This document shows, piece after piece, positions 2,606 through 31,378 of a stretch of 39,573 nt of DNA (its first letter is position 1; the number at the start of each line of letters is the position of its first letter). Origin of the DNA: a virus; the IMG/VR virus record IMGVR_UViG_3300033075_000869; one strand, 5' to 3'. Position numbers and translations under genes: made by a program. A model generated the notes under the pieces. It was not told where the DNA came from, did not search any database, and was given only the letters and a program-made list of their open reading frames with translations.

Positions 2606-2608
2606 CAA

Positions 2609-3712: not shown

Positions 3713-3743
3713 TGATGTTACGTAATGAGGTACCATTGTATCA

Positions 3744-10922: not shown

Positions 10923-10973
10923 TATCAATTTGAGTTAGACTTACGATATAGTTACTCTTAGCAAGAGGGTAAC

Positions 10974-13106: not shown

Positions 13107-13109
13107 GAT

Positions 13110-13436: not shown

Positions 13437-13804
13437 TGTTTCGAAAATATACTGCAGTAGCAATTGTCCTAATATCGATAATATTCGTGGGATGCCCACA
13501 GAATCCGGGTGTGACACCACAGCCGCCAGTCGTTACCGACCAAATGTTGTGCCCGGCAGCGTGTGAACATATTGGACCACGTGGTCTAAATTGTGAAGAT
13601 GGCAAGCCAATTGATATGAAAATTGTATGCAAATCAACAGATGATTGTAAAAAGGGAACGTGTGTTGGTAATACATGTCTCGTTTCATGTGAACAGTTTT
13701 GTGTTGATACTGAAAATGTTGGTGTTTGGCTTGATCCTGGCTGTGTTTCCAATATTCATTCATGTTCTGAAATTGAATCTTGTCCGCTAGCTCGACAAAA
13801 GTAA
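13436..13804 (+). CDS. secreted Cys-rich small protein, probable lipoprotein
   Basis: Signal peptide with lipobox-like IFVGC, followed by about 14 Cys in CxxxC / CKxxxDC patterns. Confidence 0.55.
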   Translation: MFRKYTAVAIVLISIIFVGCPQNPGVTPQPPVVTDQMLCPAACEHIGPRGLNCEDGKPIDMKIVCKSTDDCKKGTCVGNTCLVSCEQFCVDTENVGVWLDPGCVSNIHSCSEIESCPLARQK

Positions 13805-13811
13805 AATACAA

Positions 13812-14033
13812 ATGAAACCAAAGCCTTTTCCAAAAGTTTCACTAGATTCAACACGTGTTTATGATCACACAGTGTGTATCGATTATGGGTGGTTTATGGA
13901 ACAACACAATGATGCAGCATGTAAACATGGTCGGGGTGAATGTGAAACATGCGGAACGTCTGGGAGGCGAGATGTGCTTCACCATACAATTGGTGGTCGT
14001 GGTAAAATTGCACGCTTGATGAAGCGATTATGA
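13812..14033 (+). CDS. small Cys/His-rich protein (possible zinc ribbon / truncated HNH-like)
   Basis: CKHGRGECETCG...DVLHHTIGG resembles the CxxC + DHhhP..GG core of HNH, but the protein ends before the second half. Confidence 0.35.
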   Translation: MKPKPFPKVSLDSTRVYDHTVCIDYGWFMEQHNDAACKHGRGECETCGTSGRRDVLHHTIGGRGKIARLMKRL

Positions 14034-14269
14034 AAACACGTCTCAAATTTCATGTATTTCCGGGTGATATTCCTAAACGTAACAAAATTGCGATGATGGA
14101 AAATCAGGATGCTGAACTTGCTATTGAAACATACGGTGGATTGAAAACACAGAAGAAGCGTCGTAAATCATATAAACGAATGATTCTGAGTAAAGAACGC
14201 GCAGTGTTGAAACGTCGAGAACAAAATGAAATCAAAAATTCGACATCTTCTGAAGAATTACGTTACTGA
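14030..14269 (+). CDS. small basic protein
   Basis: K/R-rich 79-aa ORF (KKRRKSYKRMILSKERAVLKRREQ). Confidence 0.4.
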   Translation: MKTRLKFHVFPGDIPKRNKIAMMENQDAELAIETYGGLKTQKKRRKSYKRMILSKERAVLKRREQNEIKNSTSSEELRY

Positions 14270-14759
14270 AATTGTCAAAGGAACCGAAGGTCATACAACG
14301 GGTCTGCTTCAAGGTTCAGTATCGACGTCAGTATATGCAGGTAATGTGCTGCGTGATGAAGAAGAAAATGAAAAGAAACTAAAGCGAGCTGTATGTCTGC
14401 TGGTTAAACATCCATCATTGCCAAATATATACCTTGCTGTTTCCCGCAAAGATGATCCCAACGATATGGGCCTTCCTGGTGGGAAAGTAGACGATACTGA
14501 TGTGTCTCTTGAAGACGCTGCTGCAAGAGAACTTCAAGAAGAAACTGGCTTGATAGCAACACATATTTCAAGTCCTATTTTTGTTCGATCGGCTGATGGT
14601 GAATATACTTGCACCACATTTGCAGCAACAGTTGCTGGGAATATTGAAACAGAAGAATCTGGCGTTGTTCGTTGGGTATCACCTGAAGAACTTGTTGCGG
14701 GTTGTTTTGGTGAATATAATAAGTTGATGTTTAAGAAATTGGGAATCAAATATGAATAA
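14226..14759 (+). CDS. Nudix hydrolase with N-terminal MKSKIRHLLKNYVTEIVKGTE motif
   Basis: Nudix box GGKVDDTDVSLEDAAARELQEETGL, nearly identical to MutT GGKIEMGETPEQAVVRELQEEVGI. Confidence 0.75.
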   Translation: MKSKIRHLLKNYVTEIVKGTEGHTTGLLQGSVSTSVYAGNVLRDEEENEKKLKRAVCLLVKHPSLPNIYLAVSRKDDPNDMGLPGGKVDDTDVSLEDAAARELQEETGLIATHISSPIFVRSADGEYTCTTFAATVAGNIETEESGVVRWVSPEELVAGCFGEYNKLMFKKLGIKYE

Positions 14760-15153
14760 CGCCAAAAACATTAATGATCGCAAGAAATCAAAGCCAGACA
14801 GAGAGCCTAGATCTCCTAAACCAAAAATCAATATGGAGACTGCGCCTGACGCAATTGTTGATGGTAAACTTGTTGTTCCTGTTGGTACACGAGTTGTTAT
14901 TCCACGTATTCGATCAAATAAGAAGATTCTATCATTTGGTCTCATTGATAGGGTTGAACGTGGCGCTGTGTATGTCTGGGATGAAACTCTAACACAATGG
15001 TTTGTGTTCAAGTTGTCTGATCCTGTTGTTGTGAAAGTATATTCGTTGCCGCTCAAGTCAACTATTGAAGCGACTACAAAACCGGTCGTTGAAGCAGTGT
15101 CTGAAAAACAACTGTCATATGTAATTTCACAAGATGCTTCTTCAGAAACTTGA
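14752..15153 (+). CDS. hypothetical basic protein
   Basis: ORF of 133 aa. It overlaps the convergent protease gene by 80 nt. Confidence 0.45.
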   Translation: MNNAKNINDRKKSKPDREPRSPKPKINMETAPDAIVDGKLVVPVGTRVVIPRIRSNKKILSFGLIDRVERGAVYVWDETLTQWFVFKLSDPVVVKVYSLPLKSTIEATTKPVVEAVSEKQLSYVISQDASSET

Positions 15154-15889
15154 TAAGCTCATCATGATGTATAAAGAATGAAATGTTTGGACCTTGTGGT
15201 GCAACCCAAGAGGCAATTCCAACGAGATTTCCGTCATCATCAAATGCACCGCCACCACTATTACCACGCCATGTTGCAGATGAAATTTGCATTGCATGTG
15301 TAGTGATCTGATCTGGCCCTTTAATACTGCCCCACGAAGTTGAAACAGTACCTTCGCAATATGACCACCATAGGCCAATTGTATGACCTACGATGTGAAC
15401 TCGCGTACCATCTGGTACAGAATCGATTCCTTTTACATTCGCAACTAGGTGACCTCGAGGCGTATCTTTTGCTAGAATCAATGCAAGATCTTGTGTGTGA
15501 CTCACCGCAATAACTGTTCCTCTTCGAACAGATACTGGAAAATTATTTGGTGTTGATAGATTAACATCGCCTTTGACAACATATTGTAGTTCAACACCGA
15601 CGGAATCAAATTCATCAGATTCAATTTCGAATATGCTACCAACAAGTGCTCGACCATACATTTCAACACAGTGATTCGCAGTTAGGATCTTATCATCAGA
15701 AATCCAGACGCCTGTACAATATGGAGAATGATCACCATCACCATCAGTTTTTGTTAGAGCTACAGTTACAGACTTTAGATTTTCAACCAGTGCGACTCGG
15801 CTGGGTTGAACGGGTGGTTGTGTCAATGAACCTTGCATCGCGCAACCAAACAAAACGATTGCCAACAACCACAAGAAAAATTTTTTCAT
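15074..15889 (-). CDS. trypsin-like (S1 family) serine protease, lipoprotein
   Basis: Signal peptide MKKFFLWLLAIVLFGC (lipobox LFGC). Catalytic His in TANHC, Asp in DLALI, Ser in GNSGGGAF. AAGAGG sits 9 nt upstream of the ATG. Confidence 0.8.
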   Translation of the reverse strand: MKKFFLWLLAIVLFGCAMQGSLTQPPVQPSRVALVENLKSVTVALTKTDGDGDHSPYCTGVWISDDKILTANHCVEMYGRALVGSIFEIESDEFDSVGVELQYVVKGDVNLSTPNNFPVSVRRGTVIAVSHTQDLALILAKDTPRGHLVANVKGIDSVPDGTRVHIVGHTIGLWWSYCEGTVSTSWGSIKGPDQITTHAMQISSATWRGNSGGGAFDDDGNLVGIASWVAPQGPNISFFIHHDELIKFLKKHLVKLHMTVVFQTLLQRPVL

Positions 15890-15991
15890 TGACGTAACCT
15901 CTTATTAATAAGCTATAAGGTGCGATAATGAAAATTGTATATGTCATGCATTATGTTCATAATCACATTTGAATACATGTGTTAACATCTG

Positions 15992-16003
15992 TGCAACGTT
16001 GCA
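15992..16003. promoter_or_regulatory. Perfect 12-bp palindrome TGCAACGTTGCA in the 145-bp divergent intergenic region
   Basis: Located between the divergent protease gene (-) and gene 16035 (+). The region is AT-rich with TTGCAA/TATAGT-like hexamers. Confidence 0.35.
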
Positions 16004-16034
16004 ATAAATGTGTATATAGTTAAGTTACAGTAAC

Positions 16035-16418
16035 ATGAAATATACAGCAAATGGCGTCAAAGAGAGTGTTGACGCAAATCGTGAGCACCTAATGGGTGCA
16101 TGGGCTCTCGGAAGACCTGAAAATTGGAGTTGTAATCAACAGACGAAAGATCTGATTTGCATAGGAAACTGGCTTGACGAAGAAATGCGACGACTTTGGC
16201 TCGATGATCTTGGTCGAGTTATGCAAACGCAGCAGTTTAACAGGCGATCACGTTCAGAACATGATTTGTGGGAATTGGCTGCATTTATTATGAATGAAGT
16301 TATCGATAACAAAATTGATCGACAACGTAAACCATTGCGTCGATGGGGATTAAATGACACCAGAATTTGTGTGGCCGCAGGTGAAATGTTCGCGTTGCGG
16401 ACACAATCATTGTCTTGA
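16035..16418 (+). CDS. hypothetical protein
   Basis: ORF of 127 aa. Confidence 0.5.
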   Translation: MKYTANGVKESVDANREHLMGAWALGRPENWSCNQQTKDLICIGNWLDEEMRRLWLDDLGRVMQTQQFNRRSRSEHDLWELAAFIMNEVIDNKIDRQRKPLRRWGLNDTRICVAAGEMFALRTQSLS

Positions 16419-16674
16419 GGTTGAACAGATTAAGCCTCAACATCCAGAAGCTATTGAAGCCGCAAGAGTGATATTTGAAAAACGTTGGGCAAACGTTGAA
16501 GAAATTCGAGAAACACATCCCGAATGGCTTGAGATTGAGTTGACACGAGCAGATCGTGCTACAGATGCACTTGTTGCTGCAACCCAAGATTACAATCGTT
16601 GGGTATTTCCAAACACAGTGACAACGTCAAAAACTGCCGCCGGTTACGTGATTCACTGTATTGATTGTCCATGA
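16354..16674 (+). CDS. zinc-ribbon protein (CxxC...CxxC)
   Basis: CSRCGHNHC ... HCIDCP. Confidence 0.45.
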   Translation: MTPEFVWPQVKCSRCGHNHCLEVEQIKPQHPEAIEAARVIFEKRWANVEEIRETHPEWLEIELTRADRATDALVAATQDYNRWVFPNTVTTSKTAAGYVIHCIDCP

Positions 16675-16699
16675 TGATGGAAATTAGGTTTATTGAAAC

Positions 16700-16996
16700 A
16701 TGATCCAACACGATCTAGTTCCAGGAACGTTGTGTTGCGTTATAACCGACGGAATGAGTTTGTTTCTGAAACCTGTTCATGGGATGGCCAAAACTGGCAA
16801 GTTGAAAGAAGGTGATATTTTCATGATATTGTCTCAAATATCTCAAATTGACAATGTTATCTTGGGTGAAACAGTTTACCTTGTAATATCCAACACCAAT
16901 TTGATAGGATGGACTTTGTGGCGAGGTAGTCATTACATGAAATCTTCAGACATTCAATGGTTATTGCTCCTGGAACGTTGTGTTATGCTACTCTAA
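16700..16996 (+). CDS. PGT-motif small paralog (LVPGTLCCV...IGWTLWRG)
   Basis: Tandem paralog of the next gene; PGTL motif shared with 23793-24005 and 37874-38155. Confidence 0.5.
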   Translation: MIQHDLVPGTLCCVITDGMSLFLKPVHGMAKTGKLKEGDIFMILSQISQIDNVILGETVYLVISNTNLIGWTLWRGSHYMKSSDIQWLLLLERCVMLL

Positions 16997-17226
16997 TTGA
17001 ATTTACTGGATCTAATCCACGTGTTCCTCTGTACAGATATTCTGAAGGAGATCCATCTGGAGGACCAGAACATGATTTCTATTTGTACATGAATACAACT
17101 TTCATGATTGTTTCGGCAGTAAATACAACCCATCGTGAATCACACGTAGATTACTTTGTAATAACTGAAGGTGGTGGTATGGGTTGGACAATGTGGTATC
17201 CTAAAAATTTCAAGATTATCAAATGA
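16957..17226 (+). CDS. PGT-motif small paralog (IAPGTLCYA...MGWTMWYPK)
   Basis: Paralogous to 16700-16996. Confidence 0.5.
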   Translation: MVIAPGTLCYATLIEFTGSNPRVPLYRYSEGDPSGGPEHDFYLYMNTTFMIVSAVNTTHRESHVDYFVITEGGGMGWTMWYPKNFKIIK

Positions 17227-18179
17227 AACATCCAAATCCAAATATGTTGTTGCACATTGCCATGGGCGATGCATATGCTACTGCAGTCGAATATGTTAAG
17301 CGAGAAAAACACGCTCAACTGTATGATGCTGCACTGCGATTTCAAACATATCTACAACACCCTACGCACCTAAAACTCAAACCGGGTATGTATACCGATG
17401 ACACACAGCAAAGTATTGCTGTCGTAGAAGTTTTGTTGGGAACACAAGCACCACGTGTTCCAGATTTTCTAAATGCATTTTACGACGTATTCAAACGTGA
17501 CCCTCGTGATGGATATGCTCGTGGATTTCAAGGTCTAATTGAATCTGTTGAATCACGTGATGAATTTCGTTCGAGGATCATTCCAAACTCTAATAAAAAT
17601 GGCGCAGCAATGCGCTCTGTCCCAATTGGCGTCATTAAAGACGTAAATCAACTTGTCGATATCGCTGGGGTTCAAGCCACTGCTACCCATGCAACATGGG
17701 GTGGAATCAACAGTGCAGTCGCTGTTGCTCTTATGTCGCATTTTGCGCTATATGATCATCGTAATTTTCTATACATGAGAGAATGGTGTGCACGATATTC
17801 GTCTGCATTTCAGTTTTTTGGGTCACCATGGTCTGGTCCGGTCGTTAGTGACCCAAAAAATCCCAAAGACATGGGTGTTGGTATGAATACTGCATGGGCT
17901 GTTTGCACATTGCTCGAACAAGAAACATCATTGATGGGAATAATGCGGCGCGTAATTGAATGGGGCGGTGATACTGATTCTGTTGCAGCAATCGCGTGGG
18001 GAATAGCGGGAGCTCGTTACGGTCATGAAATTCTACCAAGCTTCCTAGAACACGATCTTGAACCAGGTTCTCGATATGGCGTTCAATTTCTAAAAGACCT
18101 AGGTGAACGCTTGATGACGGTTGAAAAATTGTCTTATGTAAAACACCCATTATTTGTGGTAAAGTTACTTATACTCTAA
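17223..18179 (+). CDS. ADP-ribosylglycohydrolase (ARH/DraG family)
   Basis: N-terminal GDAYATAVE, TDDTQQS and C-terminal GGDTDSVAAIAWGIAGARYG signature motifs. Confidence 0.8.
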   Translation: MKHPNPNMLLHIAMGDAYATAVEYVKREKHAQLYDAALRFQTYLQHPTHLKLKPGMYTDDTQQSIAVVEVLLGTQAPRVPDFLNAFYDVFKRDPRDGYARGFQGLIESVESRDEFRSRIIPNSNKNGAAMRSVPIGVIKDVNQLVDIAGVQATATHATWGGINSAVAVALMSHFALYDHRNFLYMREWCARYSSAFQFFGSPWSGPVVSDPKNPKDMGVGMNTAWAVCTLLEQETSLMGIMRRVIEWGGDTDSVAAIAWGIAGARYGHEILPSFLEHDLEPGSRYGVQFLKDLGERLMTVEKLSYVKHPLFVVKLLIL

Positions 18180-18197
18180 CGTAGTGCCAATAAAACA

Positions 18198-19526
18198 ATG
18201 AAAAAACGACGTTACAAAAGTGCGAAGATTAAGTCGGTACCGGGCGCAATTGAAATTGAAAAGTCCTTCCTGACACAGGTCAAAGAGTTGATGAACCTGG
18301 GCCAAGTTAAGAAAACAATTCATGTCGGAACCGAATTGTTTGGTGCTATTTCACCGTTTCTTGACAAACCTGACTGGTGGAACGGTTGTAAAGCCGCGTT
18401 TGCAGTTGGTAAAGTTTTGATTGACGAAGTTGAAATTTGGTCAGATGATTATTTCTCTGGCGAAGAGTGGAGTATGCCATATTCGCGAGATTTTAATCAA
18501 ACGATTCTTTCAGCTATTTCTGGTTACCCGTTTCAAGTTGTTCGAACGAGTGACGAAAATAGTATGATCAAACTTGTTGACCTTGAAGGCATCAAAGTTG
18601 GTTATACTGTTAATACACGCTCTTCGCATATTGACAATATTTTTGTTGAAACTGCAAAGCTAAAAGAGGCGCGCGATCACATCAAAAAGTTGCTTTGGGA
18701 ATCCTTGAAAGATTCAAATATTGTGATGCGTCAAAATAAGCGTATGCTTCTTCAAGAAGAAGAGTCTCGTGTTATTTTTGAATCAGATGATGCATTTCAT
18801 CCGCTAAAGTCTGCTCGAGCAACAGATTATTCTTCTTACTTGAAACGTTGCATTGACGCAAACGTCTCTAGGTCTGTGATGTTGTATGGTCCTCCCGGAA
18901 CTGGTAAGTCGACGATGGCACGAACGATCGTCGACACTTTGAATATGCGTTCGTTCAGAATTCGTGTTGAGGACGTTGCTGGAATCGAAAGTTCGACGCT
19001 TTTTGAAGCTGTTAGCATCTTTGAGCCAGACGCAATCATCTTGGATGATTTTGACCGGGCACATGCGCAGGCCCAATTGCTCGAAACGCTTGAGTTTTTC
19101 CAGCGTCATGTTAAGATTGTTATTGCAACAGTCAATGATCGAAATAGTTTGGATGAAGCTATTCTACGACCTGGTCGATTTGACGAGCTTGTGTTTGTCA
19201 AGCAAATGGACGAAGACGTTGTCAAGCACGTCCTTGGGCCTGCGCTTGAAGATGCATTTGACATTGTCAAAGATTGGCCAATTGCATTCATTCAGGAATA
19301 CGCAAAGAGGCGACGTTTCATGAGCGCTGAAGAGGCGGCGGTTTCTACAGCCGAACTAGCTGATCGAGTTAAGCGTCTTCAAAAATACGATGACTTGTCC
19401 GATGTTGAGCGAATGCTAGCTGCTAGGAAACGTCTTGGTATTGCTACAGAAGACAACGTTGACGACCTAGATGATTCTGACCCAGACCTTGAAGATGGTG
19501 AAACCCCTTTTGTAGAGCCGGCATAA
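18198..19526 (+). CDS. AAA ATPase (classic clade), with a possible -1 frameshift extension to 19750
   Basis: Walker A GPPGTGKST, Walker B IILDDFD and the second region of homology ILRPGRFDELVFV. Confidence 0.85.
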   Translation: MKKRRYKSAKIKSVPGAIEIEKSFLTQVKELMNLGQVKKTIHVGTELFGAISPFLDKPDWWNGCKAAFAVGKVLIDEVEIWSDDYFSGEEWSMPYSRDFNQTILSAISGYPFQVVRTSDENSMIKLVDLEGIKVGYTVNTRSSHIDNIFVETAKLKEARDHIKKLLWESLKDSNIVMRQNKRMLLQEEESRVIFESDDAFHPLKSARATDYSSYLKRCIDANVSRSVMLYGPPGTGKSTMARTIVDTLNMRSFRIRVEDVAGIESSTLFEAVSIFEPDAIILDDFDRAHAQAQLLETLEFFQRHVKIVIATVNDRNSLDEAILRPGRFDELVFVKQMDEDVVKHVLGPALEDAFDIVKDWPIAFIQEYAKRRRFMSAEEAAVSTAELADRVKRLQKYDDLSDVERMLAARKRLGIATEDNVDDLDDSDPDLEDGETPFVEPA

Positions 19527-21025: not shown

Positions 21026-22687
21026 ATGTTTAATGACATTGACGTTCCCAATACAACAAAAGTACTATTTCATAATGAAGCTAGAAGAAAATTGTATGTT
21101 GGACTTTGTGTTGCTGCTGAAGCAGTTACATGTACACTTGGACCACGTGGTCGAACAGTGCTAATTCAAAGCAAGGGCGGTCCACCAACTGTGACCAAGG
21201 ACGGTGTTACAGTTATTAAGTCAATTAGGCTCAAAGATCCTATTGAAAAAATGGGTGCTGAACTAATACGAGAAGCAGCGTCACAAACCAATGAAGTGGC
21301 TGGTGATGGGACTACAACGGCTACGGTTCTGACCCACTCGATGGTCAAGGAAGGCCTCAAACTATTGGAAGCTGGGTATTCTGCCAAGGAGTTGTGCGAG
21401 GGTATTCAATGGGCTCGAGAGTTGGTTGATAACGAACTAAAGAAATCTGCACGTGTTTTGAACACTTCAGCTGAAATTGCTCAGGTAGGAACTATCAGTG
21501 CGAACGGTGATACGAAAATTGGTGAATTGATCGCTGAAGCAATGGAAAAAGTTGGCCGTGACGGTATCATTACCGTTGAAGACGCAAAAGGAATGGCAAC
21601 GACCCTTGAAGTTGTAGAAGGTATGCAATTTGAACGTGGGTATATGAGCCCATATTTTGTAACCAATCCAGAACGAATGAATGTTTCATATCAAGAAGCA
21701 CTAGTTCTTGTAACTGACAAGAAACTATCTGGATTGCGAGAGCTAGTTCCAGTTCTAGAAAAGGTTGCAGGTTCGCGTAAACCGTTGCTCATTATTGCAG
21801 ATGACGTTGAAGGTGAAGCACTTCAGGGTTTGGTCATCAACCGTGTTAACGGTAATCTACCGCTAGTTGCCGTGAAAGCACCGGGATATGGTAAACATCG
21901 TGACGAGTTGCTAGCCGATATTTGTACATTGACAGGTGCTAAACTAGTTTCGTCTTCAACTGGCGTTAAGTTTGATACGTTGACACTAGCTGATTTGGGT
22001 GTTGTAAAACGCCTGGTTGTTGATGCGAAGTCAACAACCCTTGTGGGCTCAGGTGCAACCAAATCGAAAATTGATGAACATGTTGCAAATTTGCGCACTC
22101 AACTAGAAGATGTTACTATTTCCACAGAAGAAGTTGTGAAGCTAAAGACGAGAATCGCGAAGCTGGCGTCGGGTGTTGCGGTCATTCGTGTCGGCGGTGC
22201 AACAGAAGTTGAAATGATTGAGCGTAAATACCGTATTGAAGACGCACTAAATGCAACACGAGCAGCCGCAGAAGAAGGCATTGTAAAGGGCGGTGGAATG
22301 GCACTTGTTGATGCGTATCATAGTCTTGCGTCAACCCTTGCTGGTCTTTCATCTAATACAACTGTGCTAGCAGGTGCAAATATTGTTATGGCGGCTTGTC
22401 TTGCACCACTTAGCAAGATTGCGGCAAATGCCGGGAAGACGCCTGAAGTCATTCTAGAACGTGTTGATTCTGGACGCTTCCTATCTGATATTCAATACCG
22501 CGGTTGGGATGCTTCGTCTGGAAAAGACGTGGATATGTTCCAGGCAGGGATTATCGATCCTGTTAAGGTTACACGTACAGCTCTTAAAAATGCTGCATCT
22601 GTTGCAATTACGTTTCTAACACTTGATGCAGTTGTAGTTGAAGAACAATCGTCTAACAAAGAAGATAATCTTGAAAAACACGCCTGA
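21026..22687 (+). CDS. groEL: chaperonin GroEL
   Basis: Full-length collinear match to GroEL: [45 protein letters not shown] and others. Confidence 0.95.
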
Positions 22688-23067: not shown

Positions 23068-23310
23068 ATGAACGTCAATCATTTGATTGGTGAGTTTGTA
23101 ATCATAACGGGAGAATCTTGTACAGGATTGATTATAGCTGCTTCTCAATCAAATACAAATCCGCTTAACAATTGTCAAATTGACAACAGTTATCCTCTCG
23201 TATATTATGTTCTAATTTCTGATGGCCTTATAAAGGGTCCGTTGTTCTCATCAGAAATTAGAACATTGTGTTTATTCTATTCGTTCAAGTTGATTAATGT
23301 GAACTCGTAG
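23068..23310 (+). CDS. hypothetical protein
   Basis: ORF of 80 aa. Its end overlaps the convergent minus-strand gene. Confidence 0.3.
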   Translation: MNVNHLIGEFVIITGESCTGLIIAASQSNTNPLNNCQIDNSYPLVYYVLISDGLIKGPLFSSEIRTLCLFYSFKLINVNS

Positions 23311-23529
23311 CATACGTCCAACACGTGAAAATATAACAGACACCGTGTCATCTTTCGACATAGACGAAGAAACATCTGATCCTACGTGAATAACAAGACC
23401 ACGATCACCTGGCCACAACTCGTGCCACGTATTGTTATTTTGATTATTTGACGTTGCAAGTTGAGCAAGGTACGTTGACCAAAATTTGAATACAACAAGA
23501 TCACCCGGTCTTATTGAAGTGTGAGGCAT
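23272..23529 (-). CDS. PGD-motif small paralog
   Basis: N-terminal IRPGDLVVF. Confidence 0.45.
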   Translation of the reverse strand: MPHTSIRPGDLVVFKFWSTYLAQLATSNNQNNNTWHELWPGDRGLVIHVGSDVSSSMSKDDTVSVIFSRVGRMLRVHINQLERIE

Positions 23530-23535
23530 TCACCC

Positions 23536-23814
23536 TTAAATAAGGGAAATGATTGACCAATTACGTCTTAGATTTGAAAGTTTACATGAAAAAATTCGAA
23601 TCGAACCCGAATGTATCGTGATCAATCTGACGTTGTTCCCAACCATCCAGCGTTGAAGAACAATCGCATGCTCATTTTTAAGTATTTGTCCGGGTGATGG
23701 CGCATATACGTTAACAGAGTTCCATGACAACATATCATGAAGCGCAATAATCATATCTCCGGGACATGGCATCAATATTTCTCTTAGTTGTTTTACGTCG
23801 TAAGAATTTGCCAT
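23536..23814 (-). CDS. PGD-motif small paralog
   Basis: MPCPGDMIIAL. Confidence 0.45.
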   Translation of the reverse strand: MANSYDVKQLREILMPCPGDMIIALHDMLSWNSVNVYAPSPGQILKNEHAIVLQRWMVGNNVRLITIHSGSIRIFSCKLSNLRRNWSIISLI

Positions 23815-24005
23815 GTTCTTTCAAATGTATATGATTCCATTGAGAATTCTCCTACGTTATTCCCAACGCTCAATATTTTAAGTTCTATCCAATTTTTGGG
23901 ATACACTACGATTGAACACTGTATTACAAGTCTGATTTGATTATCACTCTTACGAATAATCAATGTTCCGGGTAGAATCGCTGTCATCCAGCTTGGAAAC
24001 GTCAT
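23793..24005 (-). CDS. PGT-motif small paralog
   Basis: ILPGTLIIRK. Confidence 0.4.
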   Translation of the reverse strand: MTFPSWMTAILPGTLIIRKSDNQIRLVIQCSIVVYPKNWIELKILSVGNNVGEFSMESYTFERTWQILTT

Positions 24006-24891: not shown

Positions 24892-25242
24892 ATGGGTTTT
24901 GAAATTGATCTTGGTGATGATGCAACTGTTCAAATAATTTGCGATGAATTCGAAATAGAAATACCGCAGCATTTTATTTGCTTGAATTCAACAGAGATTA
25001 ATAATATTCCACACAATGAAAAACCCGGAGCGCGCATTATAGGATGTGGAAGGTGTAGCAATGGAAATATTGACTTGCTAACAAATGATGGGAAACTACT
25101 AACATTCTCTGCAAAGAAATATGATATCCCGCCGGGCATAGTTGAACCAATTTTGTCCGGTCTTAAGTTGAACATCGGTAACACACATACAGTTGCATCT
25201 AGCTGGGTAATTGAACGTGCTGAATGTTTGATACGTACCTAG
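24892..25242 (+). CDS. hypothetical protein
   Basis: ORF of 116 aa. Confidence 0.45.
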   Translation: MGFEIDLGDDATVQIICDEFEIEIPQHFICLNSTEINNIPHNEKPGARIIGCGRCSNGNIDLLTNDGKLLTFSAKKYDIPPGIVEPILSGLKLNIGNTHTVASSWVIERAECLIRT

Positions 25243-25252
25243 TTATCGATGT

Positions 25253-25510
25253 ATGCTAACAATAAGCGTTGGTCAACTACGCAAGCTAATCAAAGAAGAA
25301 GTATTTCGTAATCTTGCATGGTCTGCAGGATTCTTTGGAAGTGGTCTAAATGGTGCAAGTAGTAATACGTCAAGTGGGACAGCAACTGTTCCACCTGGTC
25401 TTGGTGACGAAGAAGAAAACATAGAAAATGAAGAAAAAGAACAAGAAGAACTCGAATACCTCAGTCAACGTGGCGCAGCAGCAAATTCTCGAAAGGGAGG
25501 ACGCTATTGA
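25253..25510 (+). CDS. small acidic protein with N-terminal [15 protein letters not shown] motif (internal-protein-like)
   Basis: 85 aa with a Gly/Ser-rich middle and an acidic E-rich tail. The N-terminus carries the shared LRKLIxE motif. Confidence 0.5.
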
Positions 25511-25772
25511 ACTTCACGGAATCATTGAAGAGGCTCTGCCGGGAACATGGTTTCGTGTAACATGTGACAATGGTCACAGTGTGTTGGCGACACTGTCTGG
25601 TAAGTTGCGGATAAATCATATCCGCTTGCTGCCTGGTGATAAGGTGTCTGTTGAAGTTTCGCCTTATGATCTATCTCGTGGTCGTGTTACATACCGACGT
25701 TTAGATAGGCACATATGCGCCTCCAAAGAATCATTGCATTTGTTGGAGGCGTTTTTGTATTTAATGTTCTAA
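25428..25772 (+). CDS. infA: translation initiation factor IF-1 homolog with N- and C-terminal extensions
   Basis: [64 protein letters not shown] is near-collinear with E. coli IF1 ([64 protein letters not shown]). The exact start is uncertain. Confidence 0.8.
25719..25762 (+). terminator. Intrinsic terminator: 8-bp stem GCCTCCAA/TTGGAGGC followed by GTTTTTGTATTT, lying inside the last codons of the IF-1 ORF
   Basis: Perfect inverted repeat at 25719-25726 and 25743-25750, then a T-rich run. Confidence 0.5.
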
Positions 25773-25786
25773 TATACGACGGATAC

Positions 25787-25854
25787 GCCAATTGTCTATT
25801 GGCAATACTCATGACACAACTAGCCATATGGCTAAGTTCACCAATTCTAGAATT
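25787..25854. repeat. Cluster of three palindromes in a convergent intergenic region: GCCAAT-tgtct-ATTGGC, TAGCCATATGGCTA, AATTCTAGAATT
   Basis: Found at 25787-25803, 25821-25834 and 25843-25854, between convergent IF-1 (+) and the minus-strand gene. Confidence 0.4.
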
Positions 25855-26689
25855 ACGCTGCGCTCTCTTCTTTGTTCATGTAATTAACATGAGCTAGCAC
25901 TTCTTTATGACGTGCTTGAAGCGTTGTGTATATAATTTTTGATTCAGCTTTCCATTCAGCAGAAAGTTGTTTCATGCCATGTCCTTGTAGCTCATCATAA
26001 ATTTCGTCAGAAGTTGAACTCAAAATTGAGCTAATGGTCGACCATGGAACTGATGAAAAAGTTGCACCAGCTTCCTGTAGATCTCCATATTGAAACACTT
26101 TGCCAGAACCACCAAAATCAGGCTTAAGCATTGTCTCAAGTTCACCAGGCTTGTTTCCAAATTTTGAGCCCTTACGACCACCTTGTGCTCTAAATGTAAG
26201 TGAACCACCAGGATCGATGCGGGTTGCAACATCTTTATCAACAATGATATTGCCTGAACCAGTTCCTATTACGTCCCAATTTGCCAAGAAGATATCTACG
26301 TATATACCTGCTGTCAACATTTTTGCTAGTTTCTTAGGATCTGTTCGAACGTCACCTGCCATCTTGCCCGGAATAGCAGACGTTGCCAGTCCAACTTTTG
26401 CACCTTTGGTGTCATAAACTAGTTCGATTTTAGGAATGTTAACGCCTTCATAAAGTGAATATACCTTATAAGCAAGGTATTCAACCAAGATTTGCAATGA
26501 AGGATTAACATCGTCAATCAGACTTTCGTCTGTGAACTTAAGATAATATTTGTCTCCACCAATTGAACACGTTTTCATAATGTGTGTTGAACCGGTTGCA
26601 AAACATACATCACCAACATCTTCAATGTTGATTTCATTCAAAATCGATTCTCTAATTAGTTGACGTAGTGTTTCAATATTTATATACAT
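25853..26689 (-). CDS. hypothetical protein with N-terminal MYINIETLRQLIRE motif; possible atypical kinase-like fold
   Basis: ATG 26687-26689 verified; the track ORF uses TTG at 26719. Motifs GSTHIMK...YYLKF, DIFLANWDVIGTGSGNIIVD and RIDPGG vaguely resemble PI3/4K- or HipA-like catalytic and DFG loops. Confidence 0.5.
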   Translation of the reverse strand: MYINIETLRQLIRESILNEINIEDVGDVCFATGSTHIMKTCSIGGDKYYLKFTDESLIDDVNPSLQILVEYLAYKVYSLYEGVNIPKIELVYDTKGAKVGLATSAIPGKMAGDVRTDPKKLAKMLTAGIYVDIFLANWDVIGTGSGNIIVDKDVATRIDPGGSLTFRAQGGRKGSKFGNKPGELETMLKPDFGGSGKVFQYGDLQEAGATFSSVPWSTISSILSSTSDEIYDELQGHGMKQLSAEWKAESKIIYTTLQARHKEVLAHVNYMNKEESAA

Positions 26690-26715
26690 TTGACGTGTGT
26701 TCCTTTTTGATTTAA

Positions 26716-29115
26716 TCAAAAACTGTGTTCTTGAAACCCAAATTTTGATTTCAACTTAGATTTTGATGTTGACCAATAAATTTGTGTAACTTTTATCTGA
26801 CCAATTCCAATAGCTTCATCTTCTTGAGTATGAGAATCAAATCCCGGGACTTTATAAAGTCCACCTGGGCCAAGAACAAACTTGTTAGGATTATCATCTG
26901 TTGCGGCAACAAGAAATATTGAATAACCGTCATCACTATTTGCAAAGCTCAAAGCTTGTTCACGGCTAATAGACCAACTTGTTACACCACGATTTTCTTT
27001 AGGCGTAAATGTAAAAGATGCTTCTTTGTGACCATTTTCATCAAGATCGTCTTGATTGTCAATTTTTAGTGCAGACATTAGCCATTTTTTATTAACACTC
27101 ATTCCCCTATAAACGAATTCTTGTGTTGGTTTTTTAAAGATTGAATCATATTGATCAGTTGCCAAAATTTGGCTTATTTCATTTGCAAGTTCTTGTTTGA
27201 TCGGGGTGTTATCCTTGAAGTGAGCAACTAGTGCAGTATAAAGTTCTTGTTCTCGCGCAGTATCAACTTCAATTGGCAATTGAAAACGCTTTTCTGCAAA
27301 TGCATATTGATTTAGAATTGCGTCTTCAGGTGCTTCAGGTGGATTCTTTTTTATTATTTTTCTTTTTTCTACTTCAAATTCTTTAATATAAGGCTCTAGA
27401 ATTTTTTCAATTTTTTCAATTACATTTTGTCGTTCTGATTCTGATGTTGAATTCCACGCAGATACTAGATCATTTTTATGATCAACAGGATAGTGTTTAT
27501 CACTACCCGATGACATTGAATACACAATTGTAAACCAGTTAGAGTCAATATCATTGTCAAAAAATTTATTCCGCAGTTCAGTTTTTTTATCGTATTTGAT
27601 ATTTGCTGATACAGCAAGTTTTCGCAATGTTGACATTGTTTCTAGAAACAATGGATCTTTAAGTACTGTATTAGTCGAAATGATTTTATCGACTTTGTCT
27701 TCAAGCATCTTTAGAGAATGCATTCCTTCATCAGTATCATGATCCACATTTCCAATTTTAAATGCACTTTCAAGCGTTTTATAAAAATTTTCTGTGATTT
27801 CACTTGGTTGAGTTCTAAGCAAACTTGCAATCTTTGCTCCAAATTTCCATACAGGTATTTTATTGTATTCATCAGCATCGAGTGTTATAAGTTTTCGAAT
27901 AATGCTAATTATGAGCAAAAATCTATCTTTTTGATTATTACTCAATGAATATGATTCAATTTTTTTCAAATCAGATTTGACTTGATCAATGTTTGTTTTT
28001 AGAGTTTGTATAAACGATTGTGATTTACTACGCTCGGCACAAGCATCAGTATATGTCTTTGTAAATGAACGTGGTGATTCTGAAAATGCACTAGAAATTA
28101 GTTTTCTTGTAAAGCTATCGCCAACACTATTTGTAATCAAAGAAACAAATGTTGGATCAGAAGGTGAATTTTTAATCAATTCAAAAATTTGGGTCAAGTC
28201 GTTCTGAATTGACCAAGTTTTAATGGCAACTATTTCGTTGGCAATGTTGTTTAGAATTTGTTCAGTATCATTTAGTAGAACTTCATATGCTTTTGTAGCA
28301 TTTTTACTGCCCGGCGATTTTGCAACTGCACGAACCAAATTATTCCAAGTATTACGTGATTCATTATGATTCTTAGAATTTAGTGTTAGCTCATGAATGA
28401 ACTCATGAAAAAAATCTACAAGACGCCAACTAAGATTATTTTCATGCTCAACACGTATAACATTTGATAGTTTTAGTTCTTCAGCAACATCTGGGGTTAT
28501 GTTTTTTGTTCTTTTAACAATTTCGTCAAATATTTGTTTTTGAAGTTTTGGATCGTTTTGATCTGATAGATCAACTGAATTGTTGAATTTTTCAAAAAAT
28601 TCATCAAGTTGTGCATCACTTAGTTTGTTCAAAATGTTATGAAAAACATGATCGACTTCATATATCGAAGCACCACTCTCATGCCAAATTTCATATGCAT
28701 CACGAAATTCATCAATAATATCACTTGATATTCCGTCAAGCGAATCTAGAATCTTAAAAACAATGCGTGGCTTTATTGCAGTGATATCCTGCTTAATCCA
28801 ATTCATGAATTTATATGTCGACATTTCAAGCAGCAGCATTGCTGTTTGGACTTTTACGCGCTTCATATGAATAATTAGGCTAAACGCATCTAAAACTTCA
28901 TAATCGTGTATTGAACGTGACGGTGCCTCTGTACAAACTTCAATTCCTGTACAACCAGATTCACATGTATGCGAATAAACCACACAGGACGTTTCAGCGC
29001 GGGAATTACGAACTTCTAGAACAGATGCAATATAAGTCCTAAGACTAGGTATCACCAAACCCGTATACCAAAATACATTCGAACATACACGAAAAAATTT
29101 TGCTTTGATTGGCAT
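26716..29115 (-). CDS. large (799 aa) protein with N-terminal Cys cluster and C-terminal R-S-E ADP-ribosyltransferase-like domain
   Basis: C-terminal about 180 aa: FVYRG (Arg), about 44 aa later TSWSISREQALSFA (STS-like region), about 50 aa later PGFDSHTQEDE (ARTT loop + ExE). The spacing is typical of C3/iota/Alt-type mARTs. Confidence 0.55.
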   Translation of the reverse strand: MPIKAKFFRVCSNVFWYTGLVIPSLRTYIASVLEVRNSRAETSCVVYSHTCESGCTGIEVCTEAPSRSIHDYEVLDAFSLIIHMKRVKVQTAMLLLEMSTYKFMNWIKQDITAIKPRIVFKILDSLDGISSDIIDEFRDAYEIWHESGASIYEVDHVFHNILNKLSDAQLDEFFEKFNNSVDLSDQNDPKLQKQIFDEIVKRTKNITPDVAEELKLSNVIRVEHENNLSWRLVDFFHEFIHELTLNSKNHNESRNTWNNLVRAVAKSPGSKNATKAYEVLLNDTEQILNNIANEIVAIKTWSIQNDLTQIFELIKNSPSDPTFVSLITNSVGDSFTRKLISSAFSESPRSFTKTYTDACAERSKSQSFIQTLKTNIDQVKSDLKKIESYSLSNNQKDRFLLIISIIRKLITLDADEYNKIPVWKFGAKIASLLRTQPSEITENFYKTLESAFKIGNVDHDTDEGMHSLKMLEDKVDKIISTNTVLKDPLFLETMSTLRKLAVSANIKYDKKTELRNKFFDNDIDSNWFTIVYSMSSGSDKHYPVDHKNDLVSAWNSTSESERQNVIEKIEKILEPYIKEFEVEKRKIIKKNPPEAPEDAILNQYAFAEKRFQLPIEVDTAREQELYTALVAHFKDNTPIKQELANEISQILATDQYDSIFKKPTQEFVYRGMSVNKKWLMSALKIDNQDDLDENGHKEASFTFTPKENRGVTSWSISREQALSFANSDDGYSIFLVAATDDNPNKFVLGPGGLYKVPGFDSHTQEDEAIGIGQIKVTQIYWSTSKSKLKSKFGFQEHSF

Positions 29116-29163
29116 AAATGAATAATACTATACGTTCTGCTAGAAGTACTAGCTACATATAAT

Positions 29164-29463
29164 ATGAAAATCAGATTGGGTACGCTAAGAAAAATAATAC
29201 GTGAAGCTGGAGGTTGGGCCTCGCCACCACAACCAGCAGGCAGGAATTCTTTTTCTTCCGATATCACCAATCGTGAACAAATTGATCGTCTAGATATAGT
29301 CGATAATGACCGCCAACAAATAACATCACATCTGGAAGACCCTACAGAAGATCCTGAGGACTGCTTTGGTCCCGTTCCGCCGATTTCAGATCAAATTGAT
29401 ATACATCAAGACCCATTTTCCAGGGACTATGGGCCAATCCCACATCCAAATGTGGGTAGATGA
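29164..29463 (+). CDS. small acidic protein with N-terminal MKIRLGTLRKIIRE motif (internal-protein-like)
   Basis: 99 aa with acidic Asp/Glu-rich stretches (e.g. EDPTEDPED, pI estimated low). The N-terminus carries the shared motif. Confidence 0.5.
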   Translation: MKIRLGTLRKIIREAGGWASPPQPAGRNSFSSDITNREQIDRLDIVDNDRQQITSHLEDPTEDPEDCFGPVPPISDQIDIHQDPFSRDYGPIPHPNVGR

Positions 29464-29766
29464 TTAACACGAACGTTTACGAACAATTTCAGTAATCAAT
29501 TGATCAATTTGTAGACGAGTTGTTGCAAGGTCAACAATGTCAACATGTCGTACTTGATGCCATAGAGCCCAACGTTTATTTCCGATCGGACCCGTTCCAT
29601 TTACTTCGTTAGGTTTCACAAAAAAGAAAACTGGTTCTAGGAACACACTATCTTCACGAGTTTCTATAATTCGCCATATTGCGCTCTCTGTTGATTTTGG
29701 CGTAAAATAATCAGTAATGAAATTTACGTAATCTCCTAGCGCAAATTGTTCACTAATCTTGTTCAT
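29464..29766 (-). CDS. hypothetical protein
   Basis: ORF of 100 aa. Confidence 0.4.
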   Translation of the reverse strand: MNKISEQFALGDYVNFITDYFTPKSTESAIWRIIETREDSVFLEPVFFFVKPNEVNGTGPIGNKRWALWHQVRHVDIVDLATTRLQIDQLITEIVRKRSC

Positions 29767-30076
29767 AACATGTTGACGTCCACGTTATATCAAGTTTGCG
29801 TGGCACGCTATATTCAATATCAAATCTTTGAATATTCATTTGTGTATACATTAGAATAATTTCCGGAACAGTTTTCCACAACACATATGATTCATGCAAA
29901 TCATTGTTAACAGATATTATCATGCCATGATGGTTTTTAACCTTGTTACTTATTGATGTATGTTCTGCTTGAAAGATTTGTTTGCCCGGAACATACTTTC
30001 CTTTTTCTAGCCATTCGTGTTTGCACAAAATAAGTTTAGGCATTGTTTGACACCGCAAAATCATCAATTGGATCAC
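29753..30076 (-). CDS. hypothetical protein
   Basis: ORF of 107 aa. Confidence 0.4.
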   Translation of the reverse strand: MIQLMILRCQTMPKLILCKHEWLEKGKYVPGKQIFQAEHTSISNKVKNHHGMIISVNNDLHESYVLWKTVPEIILMYTQMNIQRFDIEYSVPRKLDITWTSTCYEQD

Positions 30077-30320
30077 AGTAGTTGGCTAGTTGATCCCAAC
30101 GCATTTGTGCAATATTAGCAATATTCGCTGAAGAATACACAAATGTCGCTATCCAGTTTTTCATATTAACGATCGACCTCTCATTGGGAACCCACGTTTT
30201 TACATAAACGTTTGACCAGCCGATTATCATACACACACAAAAACTACCGGGCAAACCAGTAAAACGGGGGATAAACAACGTCCCAGGACAATATGTTCGC
30301 TGTGTTTCTCTTCTATTCAC
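30036..30320 (-). CDS. hypothetical protein
   Basis: ORF of 94 aa. Confidence 0.35.
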   Translation of the reverse strand: MNRRETQRTYCPGTLFIPRFTGLPGSFCVCMIIGWSNVYVKTWVPNERSIVNMKNWIATFVYSSANIANIAQMRWDQLANYCDPIDDFAVSNNA

Positions 30321-30801
30321 CAGATAGACTCTTTAGTTCGTTATTAATGAATTCTTGATATTTTGTAAATGTTATTCCAAGTTCAACCAACCCAACTTTA
30401 GTAAGTCTTTTCTTAATTTGATTATATGGAACAGATTTTGTTGATGATTTTCCTTTATACGGCATAAAAGAAAATACGGGTTTAAGTGTTATGCACCCAT
30501 AAAGATATAGTTGTCGAACGTGTTTATTTTTCTTGTCGACCCAACCCATTCTTGAAGATACATTTATGTTTTTACGACGTCCAGGACCAGCAGAATAACG
30601 ATACATTCTTTCAGTGTATGAACCCCATGTTGAATCAACAGCAACGGGATAATCCTTTACAATTTTGTAAATGATCCCGCCAGAATTTAGACCATGAGCA
30701 CTTAGTGAAACCAAATCACCAATTGCATAGCCATAATCACTTAGTGTGGGTATTTTACCAACATATACATCGCTAAATTTTGTACCAAATTCATAGCCCA
30801 T
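30313..30801 (-). CDS. hypothetical protein
   Basis: ORF of 162 aa. Confidence 0.45.
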   Translation of the reverse strand: MGYEFGTKFSDVYVGKIPTLSDYGYAIGDLVSLSAHGLNSGGIIYKIVKDYPVAVDSTWGSYTERMYRYSAGPGRRKNINVSSRMGWVDKKNKHVRQLYLYGCITLKPVFSFMPYKGKSSTKSVPYNQIKKRLTKVGLVELGITFTKYQEFINNELKSLSGE

Positions 30802-30841
30802 ATTGCTATATTAATACACAATATTGTGATGTATTATGTCA

Positions 30842-31093
30842 TCATTTATTGTCTTTCAAGACAATCATAATTCCATGGCGTGTATAGATGTAATACGTAT
30901 ATACGTTACCCGTCAGCATAACACCAATAATAAAAAAGGCTGCATGAGCTAGTTGACGTTGTTGTGTAACGTCACCATCAGTCACATGCCAGGCAGTAAC
31001 ACCGGGTGAAATGGCTGCGTCGCCAGGAAATATATCTCCCGATGGCCAGTAATTTCTGTTAAGAACATGAAATTTTGGTGGGCGTTCCACCAA
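30842..31093 (-). CDS. PGD-motif small paralog
   Basis: GDIFPGDAAISPGVTAWHV. Confidence 0.4.
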   Translation of the reverse strand: MVERPPKFHVLNRNYWPSGDIFPGDAAISPGVTAWHVTDGDVTQQRQLAHAAFFIIGVMLTGNVYTYYIYTRHGIMIVLKDNK

Positions 31094-31105
31094 AATACAT
31101 ATTCG

Positions 31106-31378
31106 TTAGTGAACTGCTGCTTTTCGAAAAGTAATTAGACGGGGATTGTTTTTCTCTGATGTCAACAACGTAATAAACAATCCCCAACCATATTGTGTTT
31201 CACGATTCTGAACGGCAATTATGACTGTTTGAATACCGGTTCCGTCAGGTGGAGCAATCGTAACTGTTTTATTTGTGACCAAATCTGAAAATTGTCGCCA
31301 TGTATGAATGTACAAAATGTCTCCGGGATTTAGACGCGCCCAAGAGAATGATGTGTTATATAGATGGTATGTTTCCAT
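31106..31378 (-). CDS. PGD-motif small paralog
   Basis: LNPGDILYIHTW (compare family A PGDLFTWHY). Confidence 0.45.
   Translation of the reverse strand: METYHLYNTSFSWARLNPGDILYIHTWRQFSDLVTNKTVTIAPPDGTGIQTVIIAVQNRETQYGWGLFITLLTSEKNNPRLITFRKAAVH

Follow-up and report, generated by a model that had tools for sequence, protein, structure and literature searches.

Proteins that a phage injects together with its DNA are the first weapons of an infection, and the lack of homology among them makes them hard to find. In bacteriophage T4, the internal head proteins and the ADP-ribosyltransferase (ART) Alt join the prohead core through a capsid targeting sequence (CTS) of 10-20 residues, and the protease gp21 cuts after its Glu (PMC5694885). 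Otherwise diverse, the internal proteins of T4 have the CTS alone in common (PMC3012670), and the CTS itself reads MKTYQEFIAE (PMC8442874). The giant phages phiKZ and SPN3US load ejection proteins into the head and process them after Glu with a T4-related protease (PMC5694885). Polyvalent proteins, which are predicted to be injected, typically include a stripped-down kinase domain and ARTs among their modules (Iyer et al. 2017, PMC5512222), and the encapsulation peptides of bacterial microcompartments (PduP, PduD, EutC), short N-terminal amphipathic helices on a flexible linker, load cargo into a shell (PMC4594438, PMC11157265). Here we describe a candidate counterpart of the T4 system in a 39,573-nucleotide stretch of viral DNA, IMG/VR record IMGVR_UViG_3300033075_000869 (hereafter the window), a metagenomic contig that holds only part of a genome. 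Three genes between positions 25,253 and 29,463 start with the same 14-residue peptide (hereafter the tag), and among them lie genes for translation initiation factor IF-1 and for a protein with a C-terminal ART-fold domain.

An earlier reading of the letters alone (the sequence-only reading) had taken this region for a candidate module of injected effectors, and every open reading frame (ORF) that it named is found at its place in the ORF list. It had noticed a motif shared by two small proteins and a kinase-like protein, and this motif is real and not a product of chance: translated in all six frames, the 39.6-kb window matches the strict pattern L[RK]x[LIVM]I[RK]E at exactly three places, which lie 7-8 residues downstream of the ATGs of the small protein p85, the 278-aa kinase-like protein and the small protein p99 (Table 1). 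The whole tag follows the consensus M-K-[IL]-x3-4-L-[RK]-x-[LI]-I-[RK]-E over 14 residues, and the window copies end in I-K-E, I-R-E and I-R-E. Since the Arg, Lys and Ile codons differ among the three copies, it is the peptide that is conserved and not the DNA; a conserved DNA or RNA element is ruled out by the same differences. In the AlphaFold2 (AF2) model of the 278-aa protein, the tag forms a separate helix of low confidence (residues 5-16).

Outside the window, the tag was found on a wide range of proteins. The kinase-like protein has more than 200 stand-alone homologues (about 270 aa; their contigs reach 291 kb), almost all of which begin M[RK][IL]T..QLR.[LI]IRE, the tag stands at the start of nearly all of the approximately 120 homologues listed, and the Glu is kept in 76 of 85 tags of this family, even though the proteins behind the conserved tag are only 37-50% identical across lineages. 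A weight matrix trained on the N-termini of the kinase family only was run over 14 non-redundant sources and returned 33 distinct hits, 31 of which were not kinase-like. Twenty-seven of the 33 lay no more than three codons from the ATG of an ORF with 60 aa or more, against a background of 2.8% (binomial p ~1e-36), and the remaining six stood at GTG or other starts. With their first 20 residues removed, the tagged proteins of the related loci (numbered with an L below) formed at least 20 mutually unrelated clusters.

We also searched IMG/VR with a degenerate DNA pattern for MK[ILM]T...LR.IIRE, which matched at least 120 stretches where, by our own estimate, fewer than one hit was expected by chance. 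Each of the matches listed heads an ORF, and the 144 ORFs concerned (46-334 aa, 135 of them distinct) are very diverse in their downstream sequence. Among these same matches, positions that the pattern does not constrain are still biased, with Q at position 7 in 65%, E, A or S at position 15 in 88% and L, I, V or M at position 16 in 81%. Searching Pfam with ten other tagged cargo proteins recovered domains of unknown function only, and tblastn with two further tagged cargo families gave no match in cultured phages. Flavobacterium phage immuto, checked as a cultured relative, has only weakly tag-like N-termini, and Vibrio phage Va1 was uninformative. The motif strings of the tag were not found in the searchable literature and, as far as that literature shows, the tag appears to be undescribed. 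It also appears to be widespread and therefore worth an experimental test. Judged by its sequence behaviour, it may be described as a portable targeting tag, a view that the above data support.

A separate observation concerns a cultured T4-like cyanophage, Synechococcus phage S-RIM8, whose gp114 (591 aa, L026:2759-4534) is encoded in the structural module. This protein strings together small modules (DACYKKVKSRYKVWPSAYASG, SSLRDWF...GW) that are separate tagged proteins in L015, L018 and L020, and it is matched by 369 cyanophage and flavophage records.

Tag-bearing loci with T4-type head genes allowed a comparison with the T4 system. Using tblastn with T4 gp13-24 on all fetched loci, we detected T4-like gp17, gp18, gp19, gp20, gp21 and gp23 in 28 of the loci derived from the DNA pattern, and a T4-type gp21 (28-36% identity, E down to 7e-25) was present in 15 tag-bearing IMG/VR loci. 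L082 and L092 have tagged ORFs between gp20 and gp21, which is the position of gp67/68 in T4; in L056, L133, L083, L129, L131, L119 and L130, tagged ORFs come directly after gp21, which is the position of gp22. In L131, three tagged genes stand between the protease gene and the scaffold and major capsid genes; the protease is a T4-type prohead protease matched by 2,589 phage records, the best of them from Flavobacterium phage immuto (42.6% identity). Looser variants of the tag, such as MxKLKDLLKE, head more small genes in T4-like head clusters. The maturation site of T4 gp23, FLTE/A (the slash marks the cut), aligns with LLRE/A, LIDE/S and LLDE/A in capsid proteins of tag-bearing loci, and these predicted maturation sites match in shape the stretch in which the tag ends, IIRE/[EAS]. 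One further locus, L023 (a 260-kb IMG/VR contig), carries at 10828-18599 at least eight neighbouring paralogues that start with MKLYxILFEE, close to the T4 CTS and to the N-terminus of Alt, MELITELFDE. Such T4-like tags were seen only in L023, where other genes start with tags of the MNQRQILKAIIKQILLTE type.

We tentatively propose that MKITxxQLRxIIRE is a portable capsid-loading tag of a very extensive group of uncultured phages within the T4 superfamily, including genomes of 200-430 kb; taken as a whole, we regard this as possible and somewhat doubtful. T4-like capsid targeting by the tag is the most likely of the explanations considered and, by analogy, evenly balanced in our judgement, and a full chain in which the proteins would be packaged, cleaved and injected and would then act on the host is less likely than the targeting step. 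In that chain, the tag, as an amphipathic helix, would dock its protein onto the scaffolding core during prohead assembly, and a T4-type prohead protease would remove it after the Glu of I-x-E, giving the kinase-like protein the predicted new N-terminus SILNEINIEDVGDVCFATGSTHIMK. The mature cargo would stay in the head and enter the host with the DNA, where the ART and the kinase-like enzyme would act early in infection by modifying proteins of the host. All of this is inferred, from docking and cleavage through packaging and injection to the enzymatic activity and its targets, and so is a T4-type head in the window lineage. The cargo does look effector-type, comprising the ART and kinase-like proteins and, in L011, tagged ART and 'YHGT' leucine-rich-repeat proteins.

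The resemblance to T4 lies in a short N-terminal peptide common to otherwise unrelated proteins, in an ending [LI]-x-E that at the level of sequence has the shape of a gp21 cleavage site, and in a cargo that includes small charged proteins and an Arg-Ser-Glu (R-S-E) ART. Where head genes are in view, tag-bearing phages encode T4-type gp20, gp21 and gp23 and carry tagged genes in the places of gp67/68 and gp22. There are also differences. The tag consensus is longer than the T4 CTS and different from it, the cargo has no sequence homology to the internal proteins or Alt, there are far more tagged families here (at least 20), the new cargo comprises kinase-like and leucine-rich-repeat proteins and many unknowns, and the window lineage is without head genes in view. 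The phages phiKZ and SPN3US are likewise large and pack many proteins into their heads, but their propeptides exceed 100 residues, share no short consensus and are cut at A/S/G-x-E (PMC5694885). It is thus partly supported that the region works like the internal-protein and Alt system of T4 while not being a member of it by homology. The parallel drawn in the sequence-only reading survives to the same extent: on the side of mechanism it is upheld in part by the shared N-terminal tag, its I-x-E ending and the gp21 loci, and on the side of homology, to IPI-III and to Alt, it fails.

Several observations weigh against the proposed capsid-loading role. The tag consensus is unlike the CTS of T4, MKTYQEFIAE. 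The same tblastn searches with T4 gp13-24 found no structural gene in the window or in L001-L029, including its closest relatives L005-L007, L028 and L029, so that a T4-type protease is assumed for the window lineage. When replication proteins of T4 were added to gp13-24, the only match in the window, among searches of the window and L005-L029, was to rnlB, and gp41-, gp43-, gp44- and gp45-like matches came from more distant kinase loci. Tag-like ORFs were not enriched within 3 kb of gp21 (11 of 168, against 223 of 2544 elsewhere; Fisher p 0.39), in a test carried out on tag-selected loci and excluding the strict-pattern ORFs by which these loci had been fetched. About 9% of the ORFs of at least 50 aa in tag-selected loci are tag-like, compared with a handful of CTS proteins in T4. 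The helix runs on past Glu14, with a conserved hydrophobic residue at position 16, so the cut site is not obvious. Within the region itself, IF-1 carries no tag, and the N-terminus of the ART protein, MKRVKVQTAMLLLE, which its full-length homologues share, resembles the tag loosely and is at best a degenerate form of it. Lastly, predicted structures and motifs are the basis for assigning these proteins to the ARTs and kinases, with no Pfam or PDB profile hit.

If the proposal is true, a simple sequence pattern would list head-loaded, injected proteins belonging to hundreds of mostly unknown families, among them leucine-rich-repeat proteins, a kinase-like family and a new family of ARTs, and foreign proteins could be brought into phage heads with the tag, a use to which the T4 CTS has already been put. 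A tag playing the CTS role would give a sequence-only handle on the injected proteins of a large and abundant group of uncultured aquatic phages, would point to the R-S-E ART and the stripped-down kinase as two new enzyme families and likely host-takeover effectors, and would be the second natural tag available for filling phage heads with cargo.

Four other explanations for the tag have to be considered. The tag may target the prohead core while the tagged proteins, above all p85 and p99, which are probably disordered, are scaffold or core parts that are degraded and expelled like gp22, gp67 and gp68, and not injected. The tagged ORFs at exactly the gp67/68 and gp22 positions of T4-like clusters would fit this, as would the acidic character of 62% of the tagged cargo, a property shared with the T4 core proteins, and the low-complexity, acidic sequences of p85 and p99. 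In approximately half of the tagged ORFs, another [LIVM]-x-E follows in the next 10 residues, which is what one would expect if these proteins are cut to pieces. We nevertheless consider this explanation unlikely: folded enzymes as cargo (kinase-like, ART and leucine-rich-repeat proteins) make a scaffold role implausible, and the same clusters encode separate scaffold-like proteins of ~390 aa with gp22-like N-termini. Slightly less likely still is that the tag serves encapsulation or assembly in a structure other than the capsid, such as a vault-like shell made of the major vault protein of the phage itself, the phage chaperonin, a condensate or a viral factory. The window does encode a homologue of the major vault protein, 72% conserved and syntenic in L005/L006, and a Cpn60 gene lies within a few kb of p85, IF-1 and p99 in every related lineage examined (L005-L007, L010, L028, L029, L116, L136). 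Eukaryotic vaults carry an ART, PARP4. Microcompartment peptides, of which PduD begins MEINEKLLRQIIEDVL, likewise join a helix to diverse cargo and have a hydrophobic and charged pattern similar to that of the tag. They are similarly short, amphipathic and N-terminal (PMC4594438, PMC11157265), and the tagged genes are spread over genomes and not concentrated at the head genes. However, most tag-bearing loci, including small T4-like ones, lack both the major vault protein and Cpn60. Shell genes of the microcompartment type were not seen, the setting is that of a phage, and the invariant Glu of I-x-E, which fits a protease site and has no counterpart in the microcompartment peptides, would be left unexplained.

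We regard as improbable a third explanation, in which neighbouring genes of a hypervariable accessory region have nothing to do with each other and the tag, instead of directing localisation, is a common leader for expression, stability or cassette exchange, for example a constant 5' module to which variable cargo is joined by recombination in the manner of polymorphic toxin cassettes. Very many diverse small ORFs are indeed tagged, commonly in tandem arrays (L074, L020, L011, L023), the gene order around tagged genes varies by lineage, and cassette-like loci have been noted for polyvalent proteins (PMC5512222). Yet the differing tag codons within the window leave only weak DNA-level homology for recombination, the peptide is kept across lineages whose cargo has diverged to the identities given above, the amino-acid bias extends to positions left free by the pattern, and p85, IF-1 and p99 are syntenic in distant lineages. 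Very improbable, in our view, is that these are ordinary cytoplasmic early proteins whose helix binds one host target, for example the ribosome or the translation initiation machinery. A shared target in the translation machinery would account for the placement of IF-1 between two tagged genes; p85, IF-1 and p99 form a same-strand run in L116 and L136, p85 and IF-1 overlap by 56-83 nt in several lineages, and T4 ModB (according to the T4 annotation) and a T7 kinase modify translation factors (PMC5512222). Most tagged genes, however, have no IF-1 nearby, and tagged genes within head-morphogenesis clusters are hard to account for in this way.

The sequence-only reading had called the tagged 278-aa protein kinase-like, and structure prediction and Foldseek support this label. 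The AF2 model, built with 35 sequences, reached a pLDDT of 88.5 and a pTM of 0.87, and the start at ATG 26689 is the one used by gene callers on three Logan contigs. All 41 Foldseek hits at E<=1e-3 were kinases, including many eukaryote-like protein kinases at a probability of ~1, and the best was Helicobacter pylori CtkA (E 5e-5, TM 0.47); TM scores were modest, and the C-terminal half of the protein is atypical. The model supports a bilobal kinase fold with a predicted beta3 Lys, alphaC Glu, catalytic Asp/Asn and metal-binding Asp. Across the family, K51, E70, D132, D139, N147 and D159 (in RIDPGG) are invariant and N137 nearly so (D132, N137 and D139 lie in DIFLANWD), and we assign putative catalytic roles to K51, E70, D132/N137/D139, N147 and D159. 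No curated family was matched in Pfam, PHROG or the PDB sequences.

The kinase-like domain recurs in gp117 of Pseudomonas phage Dolphis (1222 aa), where it occupies aa 667-862 (E 3e-17) and is fused to a C-terminal ADPrib_exo_Tox domain, an arrangement that recalls the polyvalent proteins. In contrast to these, the window has its activities on separate single-enzyme proteins, each with its recognisable domain alone and with their own tags, and the fusion is found only in Dolphis gp117; the kinase-like family is likened to the kinase family of the polyvalent proteins (PMC5512222) by description only. Members of the family also lie beside T4-like replication genes, namely gp43/44/45 in L022 and gp41 in L012-L021. 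In L154 (JAOZSQ010000001.1; 426,929 bp, 30% GC), a homologue with 40% identity stands beside a gp41 helicase (E 7e-59) and a gp61 primase. This contig was binned as a metagenome-assembled genome of a Thermoplasmatota archaeon and is probably a mis-binned contig of a very large phage.

For the neighbouring 799-aa ORF, the sequence-only reading had proposed a C-terminal ART-like domain and a resemblance to T4 Alt. The ART fold is supported by the AF2 model and the R-S-E motif; the length needs revision and the homology to Alt is not borne out. In the homologues P0004, P0125 and P0126 the first residue corresponds to M84 (ATG 28866), and positions 28867-29163 are, as DNA, better conserved than the ART protein is, so that the first 83 codons are probably non-coding and the protein probably has 716 aa. 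The DNA of this intergenic stretch is ~90% identical to that of L028 and ~75% to that of L029, compared with 57% and 46% for the flanking ART proteins, and the gene caller begins the ART gene of L029 after the equivalent stretch. It is a probable regulatory region that had been misread as an 83-codon extension of the ART gene. Rfam gave no match to it at the gathering threshold or at E<=1, and a promoter and terminator scan did no better than on shuffled sequences, with no excess of sigma-70-like sites.

Only four close homologues of the ART protein were found in 5.8 billion clusters. A profile built from these four retrieved 672 representatives, almost all through the last ~200 residues, and many of them are stand-alone proteins of 200-240 aa. 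The AF2 model of the domain has a pLDDT of 93.5, and its top Foldseek hits were also ARTs, at weak scores; the nearest structural neighbours are the Rhs toxin TreX, KptA/Tpt1 and heat-labile enterotoxin A. In an alignment of 38 members (A4), R86, W130, E181 and E183 are invariant and S129 is conserved in at least 90%, corresponding to R670, S713-W714 and E765/E767 of the 799-aa ORF, and a segment 'EAPxDAxLxxYAFAxxR' is conserved ahead of the triad. Pfam gave no ART family at E<=0.1 for any of the 38 members, and a PDB profile search had no hit. PDB sequence searches with single sequences and with the profile returned neither an ART nor a kinase, the PHROGs had no match to the ART protein, and tblastn of the 799-aa protein against cultured phages found none.

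Homology of the domain to T4 Alt was considered and rejected, as hhalign of A4 against Alt gave a probability of 0.3 over 17 columns; tblastn with Alt, ModA and ModB likewise found no match in the window or the related loci. With a match in fold and motif and no profile similarity to Alt, the domain is, as modelled, an R-S-E ART by fold and motif that forms its own family of at least 672 representatives and is not an Alt homologue. It remains like Alt, ModA and ModB (the Alt/VIP2, R-S-E clade) in being carried by a phage-encoded protein of ~700 aa with an R-S-E ART towards the C-terminus and, by analogy, in an expected modification of host proteins. It differs in its nearest structural neighbours, listed above, and in its distinctive lead-in 'EAPxDAPLGxYAFAxxR'.

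The domain adjoins the kinase-like gene in L005/L006, L008, L009 (three copies), L011, L028 and L029. A strict tag immediately precedes it in 17 of the 148 best profile hits outside the query alignment, for example in P0224 (MKIRLSELRRLIREEIEGEAPEDSPLGRFAF), and in L011 the domain, 35% identical to that of the window (E 6e-29), comes directly after a tag. This last locus, a 257-kb IMG/VR contig, has at 704-4091 three tandem genes that start MTHLLRSLI(R/H)(E/Q). In two of them, leucine-rich repeats are joined to a 'YHGT...GKGLYT' domain that may be an ART of the H-Y type, and in the third they are joined to the window-type ART domain; downstream of the trio follow a tagged 80-aa gene, a kinase-like gene and a tagged 214-aa gene.

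The two small proteins were correctly described in the sequence-only reading as acidic and motif-tagged (isoelectric points (pI) in Table 1), whereas its comparison with T4 IPI-III found no homology in its favour. Behind the tag, p85 has a Gly/Ser-rich 'WSAGFFGSG', then an acidic stretch and a basic tail, and homologues with the tag and a SAG(F/M)FGG motif occur in L005, L007, L116 and L136. In p99, the tag is followed by the conserved motifs 'GG..PPQPAGR', 'DREQ', 'C(F/W)GPVPP' and 'DPF.RDYGP', with tagged homologues in L005, L007, L009/L051, L116 and L136. Taking the ORFs of the region together, remote-homology searches succeeded at the level of sequence for IF-1 and at the level of fold, not sequence, for the kinase-like and ART proteins, and p85 and p99 had no match in Pfam or PHROG.

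IF-1, which the sequence-only reading had placed in the module, is a genuine bacterial-type factor. Besides its Pfam match, it matches PHROG 30201 (E 1.8e-26) and, in the PDB, bacterial IF-1 structures at E 5e-25 to 1e-19 and archaeal aIF1A at E 1e-4. Its N-terminal extension is rich in Lys and Asn (MKKKNKKN...), and MK(K/N)KNK is kept in L005. The IF-1 gene adjoins p85 in every related locus, and the end of p85 and the start of IF-1 overlap in different frames by 83 nt in the window (25428-25510), with overlaps of 74 nt in L005 and 56 nt in L029. Conservation at the level of protein extends to both frames, which indicates a dual-coding overlap and not a frameshift fusion; such a fusion of p85 and IF-1, suggested by the 83-nt overlap, is ruled out by the conservation as protein of the C-terminal tail of p85 in L005 and L007. 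The genes for p85, IF-1 and p99 keep their synteny across distant lineages, and in the window lineage the ART and kinase genes are placed between IF-1 and p99 on the opposite strand, giving the strand order +,+,+,-,-,+ across 24892-29463. IF-1 is best read as a co-expressed factor for the takeover of translation, not as cargo. Since several lineages have it flanked by two tagged genes, control of translation initiation by the phage lends itself to a direct test.

Table 1 Features of the region and of the rest of the window
Feature	Position	Strand	Details
116-aa acidic ORF	24892..25242	+	pI 4.76; without tag; opens the + strand unit that runs on into the tagged 85-aa gene and IF-1
p85, tagged small acidic protein	25253..25510	+	85 aa; pI 4.78; tag at 25253-25297
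IF-1, bacterial-type	25428..25772 (gene callers: GTG 25470)	+	Pfam PF01176, E 8.5e-23, profile positions 1-64/64
Tagged protein-kinase-like enzyme	25853..26689	-	278 aa; tag MYINIETLRQLIRE at 26689-26648
ART protein	26716..28866	-	716 aa (probable start; the 799-aa ORF reaches 29115); ~500-aa helical N-terminal region, C-terminal ART domain
C-terminal ART-fold domain	26719..27363	-	last 215 residues (aa 585-799 of the 799-aa ORF); R-S-E triad YR670G, S713-W, E765-D-E767
Divergent intergenic region between ART gene and p99	28867..29163		~300 nt; alignment A5
p99, tagged small acidic Pro-rich protein	29164..29463	+	99 aa; pI 4.83; tag MKIRLGTLRKIIRE at 29164-29205
NUDIX hydrolases (two)	107-652, 14226-14759	+	PHROGs
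RNA ligase	6351-7382	+	T4 rnlB-like, E 9e-7; Pfam RNA_ligase
Thg1-like tRNA-His guanylyltransferase	8311-9090	+	PHROG 4717, E 2e-69
Papain-family cysteine protease and two protease-like ORFs	12282-13106, 15074-15889, 10974-11477	+, -, +	Peptidase_C1, E 2.6e-17; PHROG 9683, 15610
ADP-ribosylglycohydrolase	17223-18179	+	E 2e-32; syntenic in L005/L006
Cpn60/GroEL-type chaperonin	21026-22687	+	E 1.4e-65; phage-encoded
Runs of small ORFs (70-160 aa)	23272-24005, 29464-31378	-	on both flanks of the region
Homologue of the eukaryotic major vault protein	32914-35520	-	868 aa; MVP_shoulder E 1.5e-30, Vault repeats, SPFH/Band 7 match

As to its genomic setting, the region is best explained as an accessory-gene cluster of a large uncultured phage. 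The 39,573-bp contig with the 799-aa protein is present in both JGI and Logan, and the protein was also found on Logan contigs of 15-39 kb from three samples. When 50,697 phage records were searched by megablast, 20 kb of the window had no match among them. The untagged 116-aa ORF at the head of the + strand unit is kept at the same position in L028 (90% identity), L029 (63%) and L005, and had no match in Pfam or PHROG.

Many of the small ORFs on the two flanks carry '(P)GD(L/I/M)(V/I)' near the N-terminus, for example MPHTSIRPGDLVVF, PCPGDMIIAL, LNPGDILYIH and AIGDLVSL, and L005 has similar ORFs (MKPGDLVETQ, FQVGDLVTIA); by their sequences, these look like an expanded paralogous family. On the basis of sequence annotation, the ART, the ADP-ribosylglycohydrolase and the NUDIX hydrolases would together place on one contig a writer, an eraser and an ADP-ribose clean-up set. 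A vault-shell protein is unusual for a phage-like genome, and the gene for the major vault protein homologue has a local GC content of 0.49-0.51 in surroundings of 0.35-0.40. The RNA ligase gene near that for a Thg1-like enzyme suggests a tRNA repair set. The papain-family protease and the two protease-like ORFs are also unusual accessory genes in a phage.

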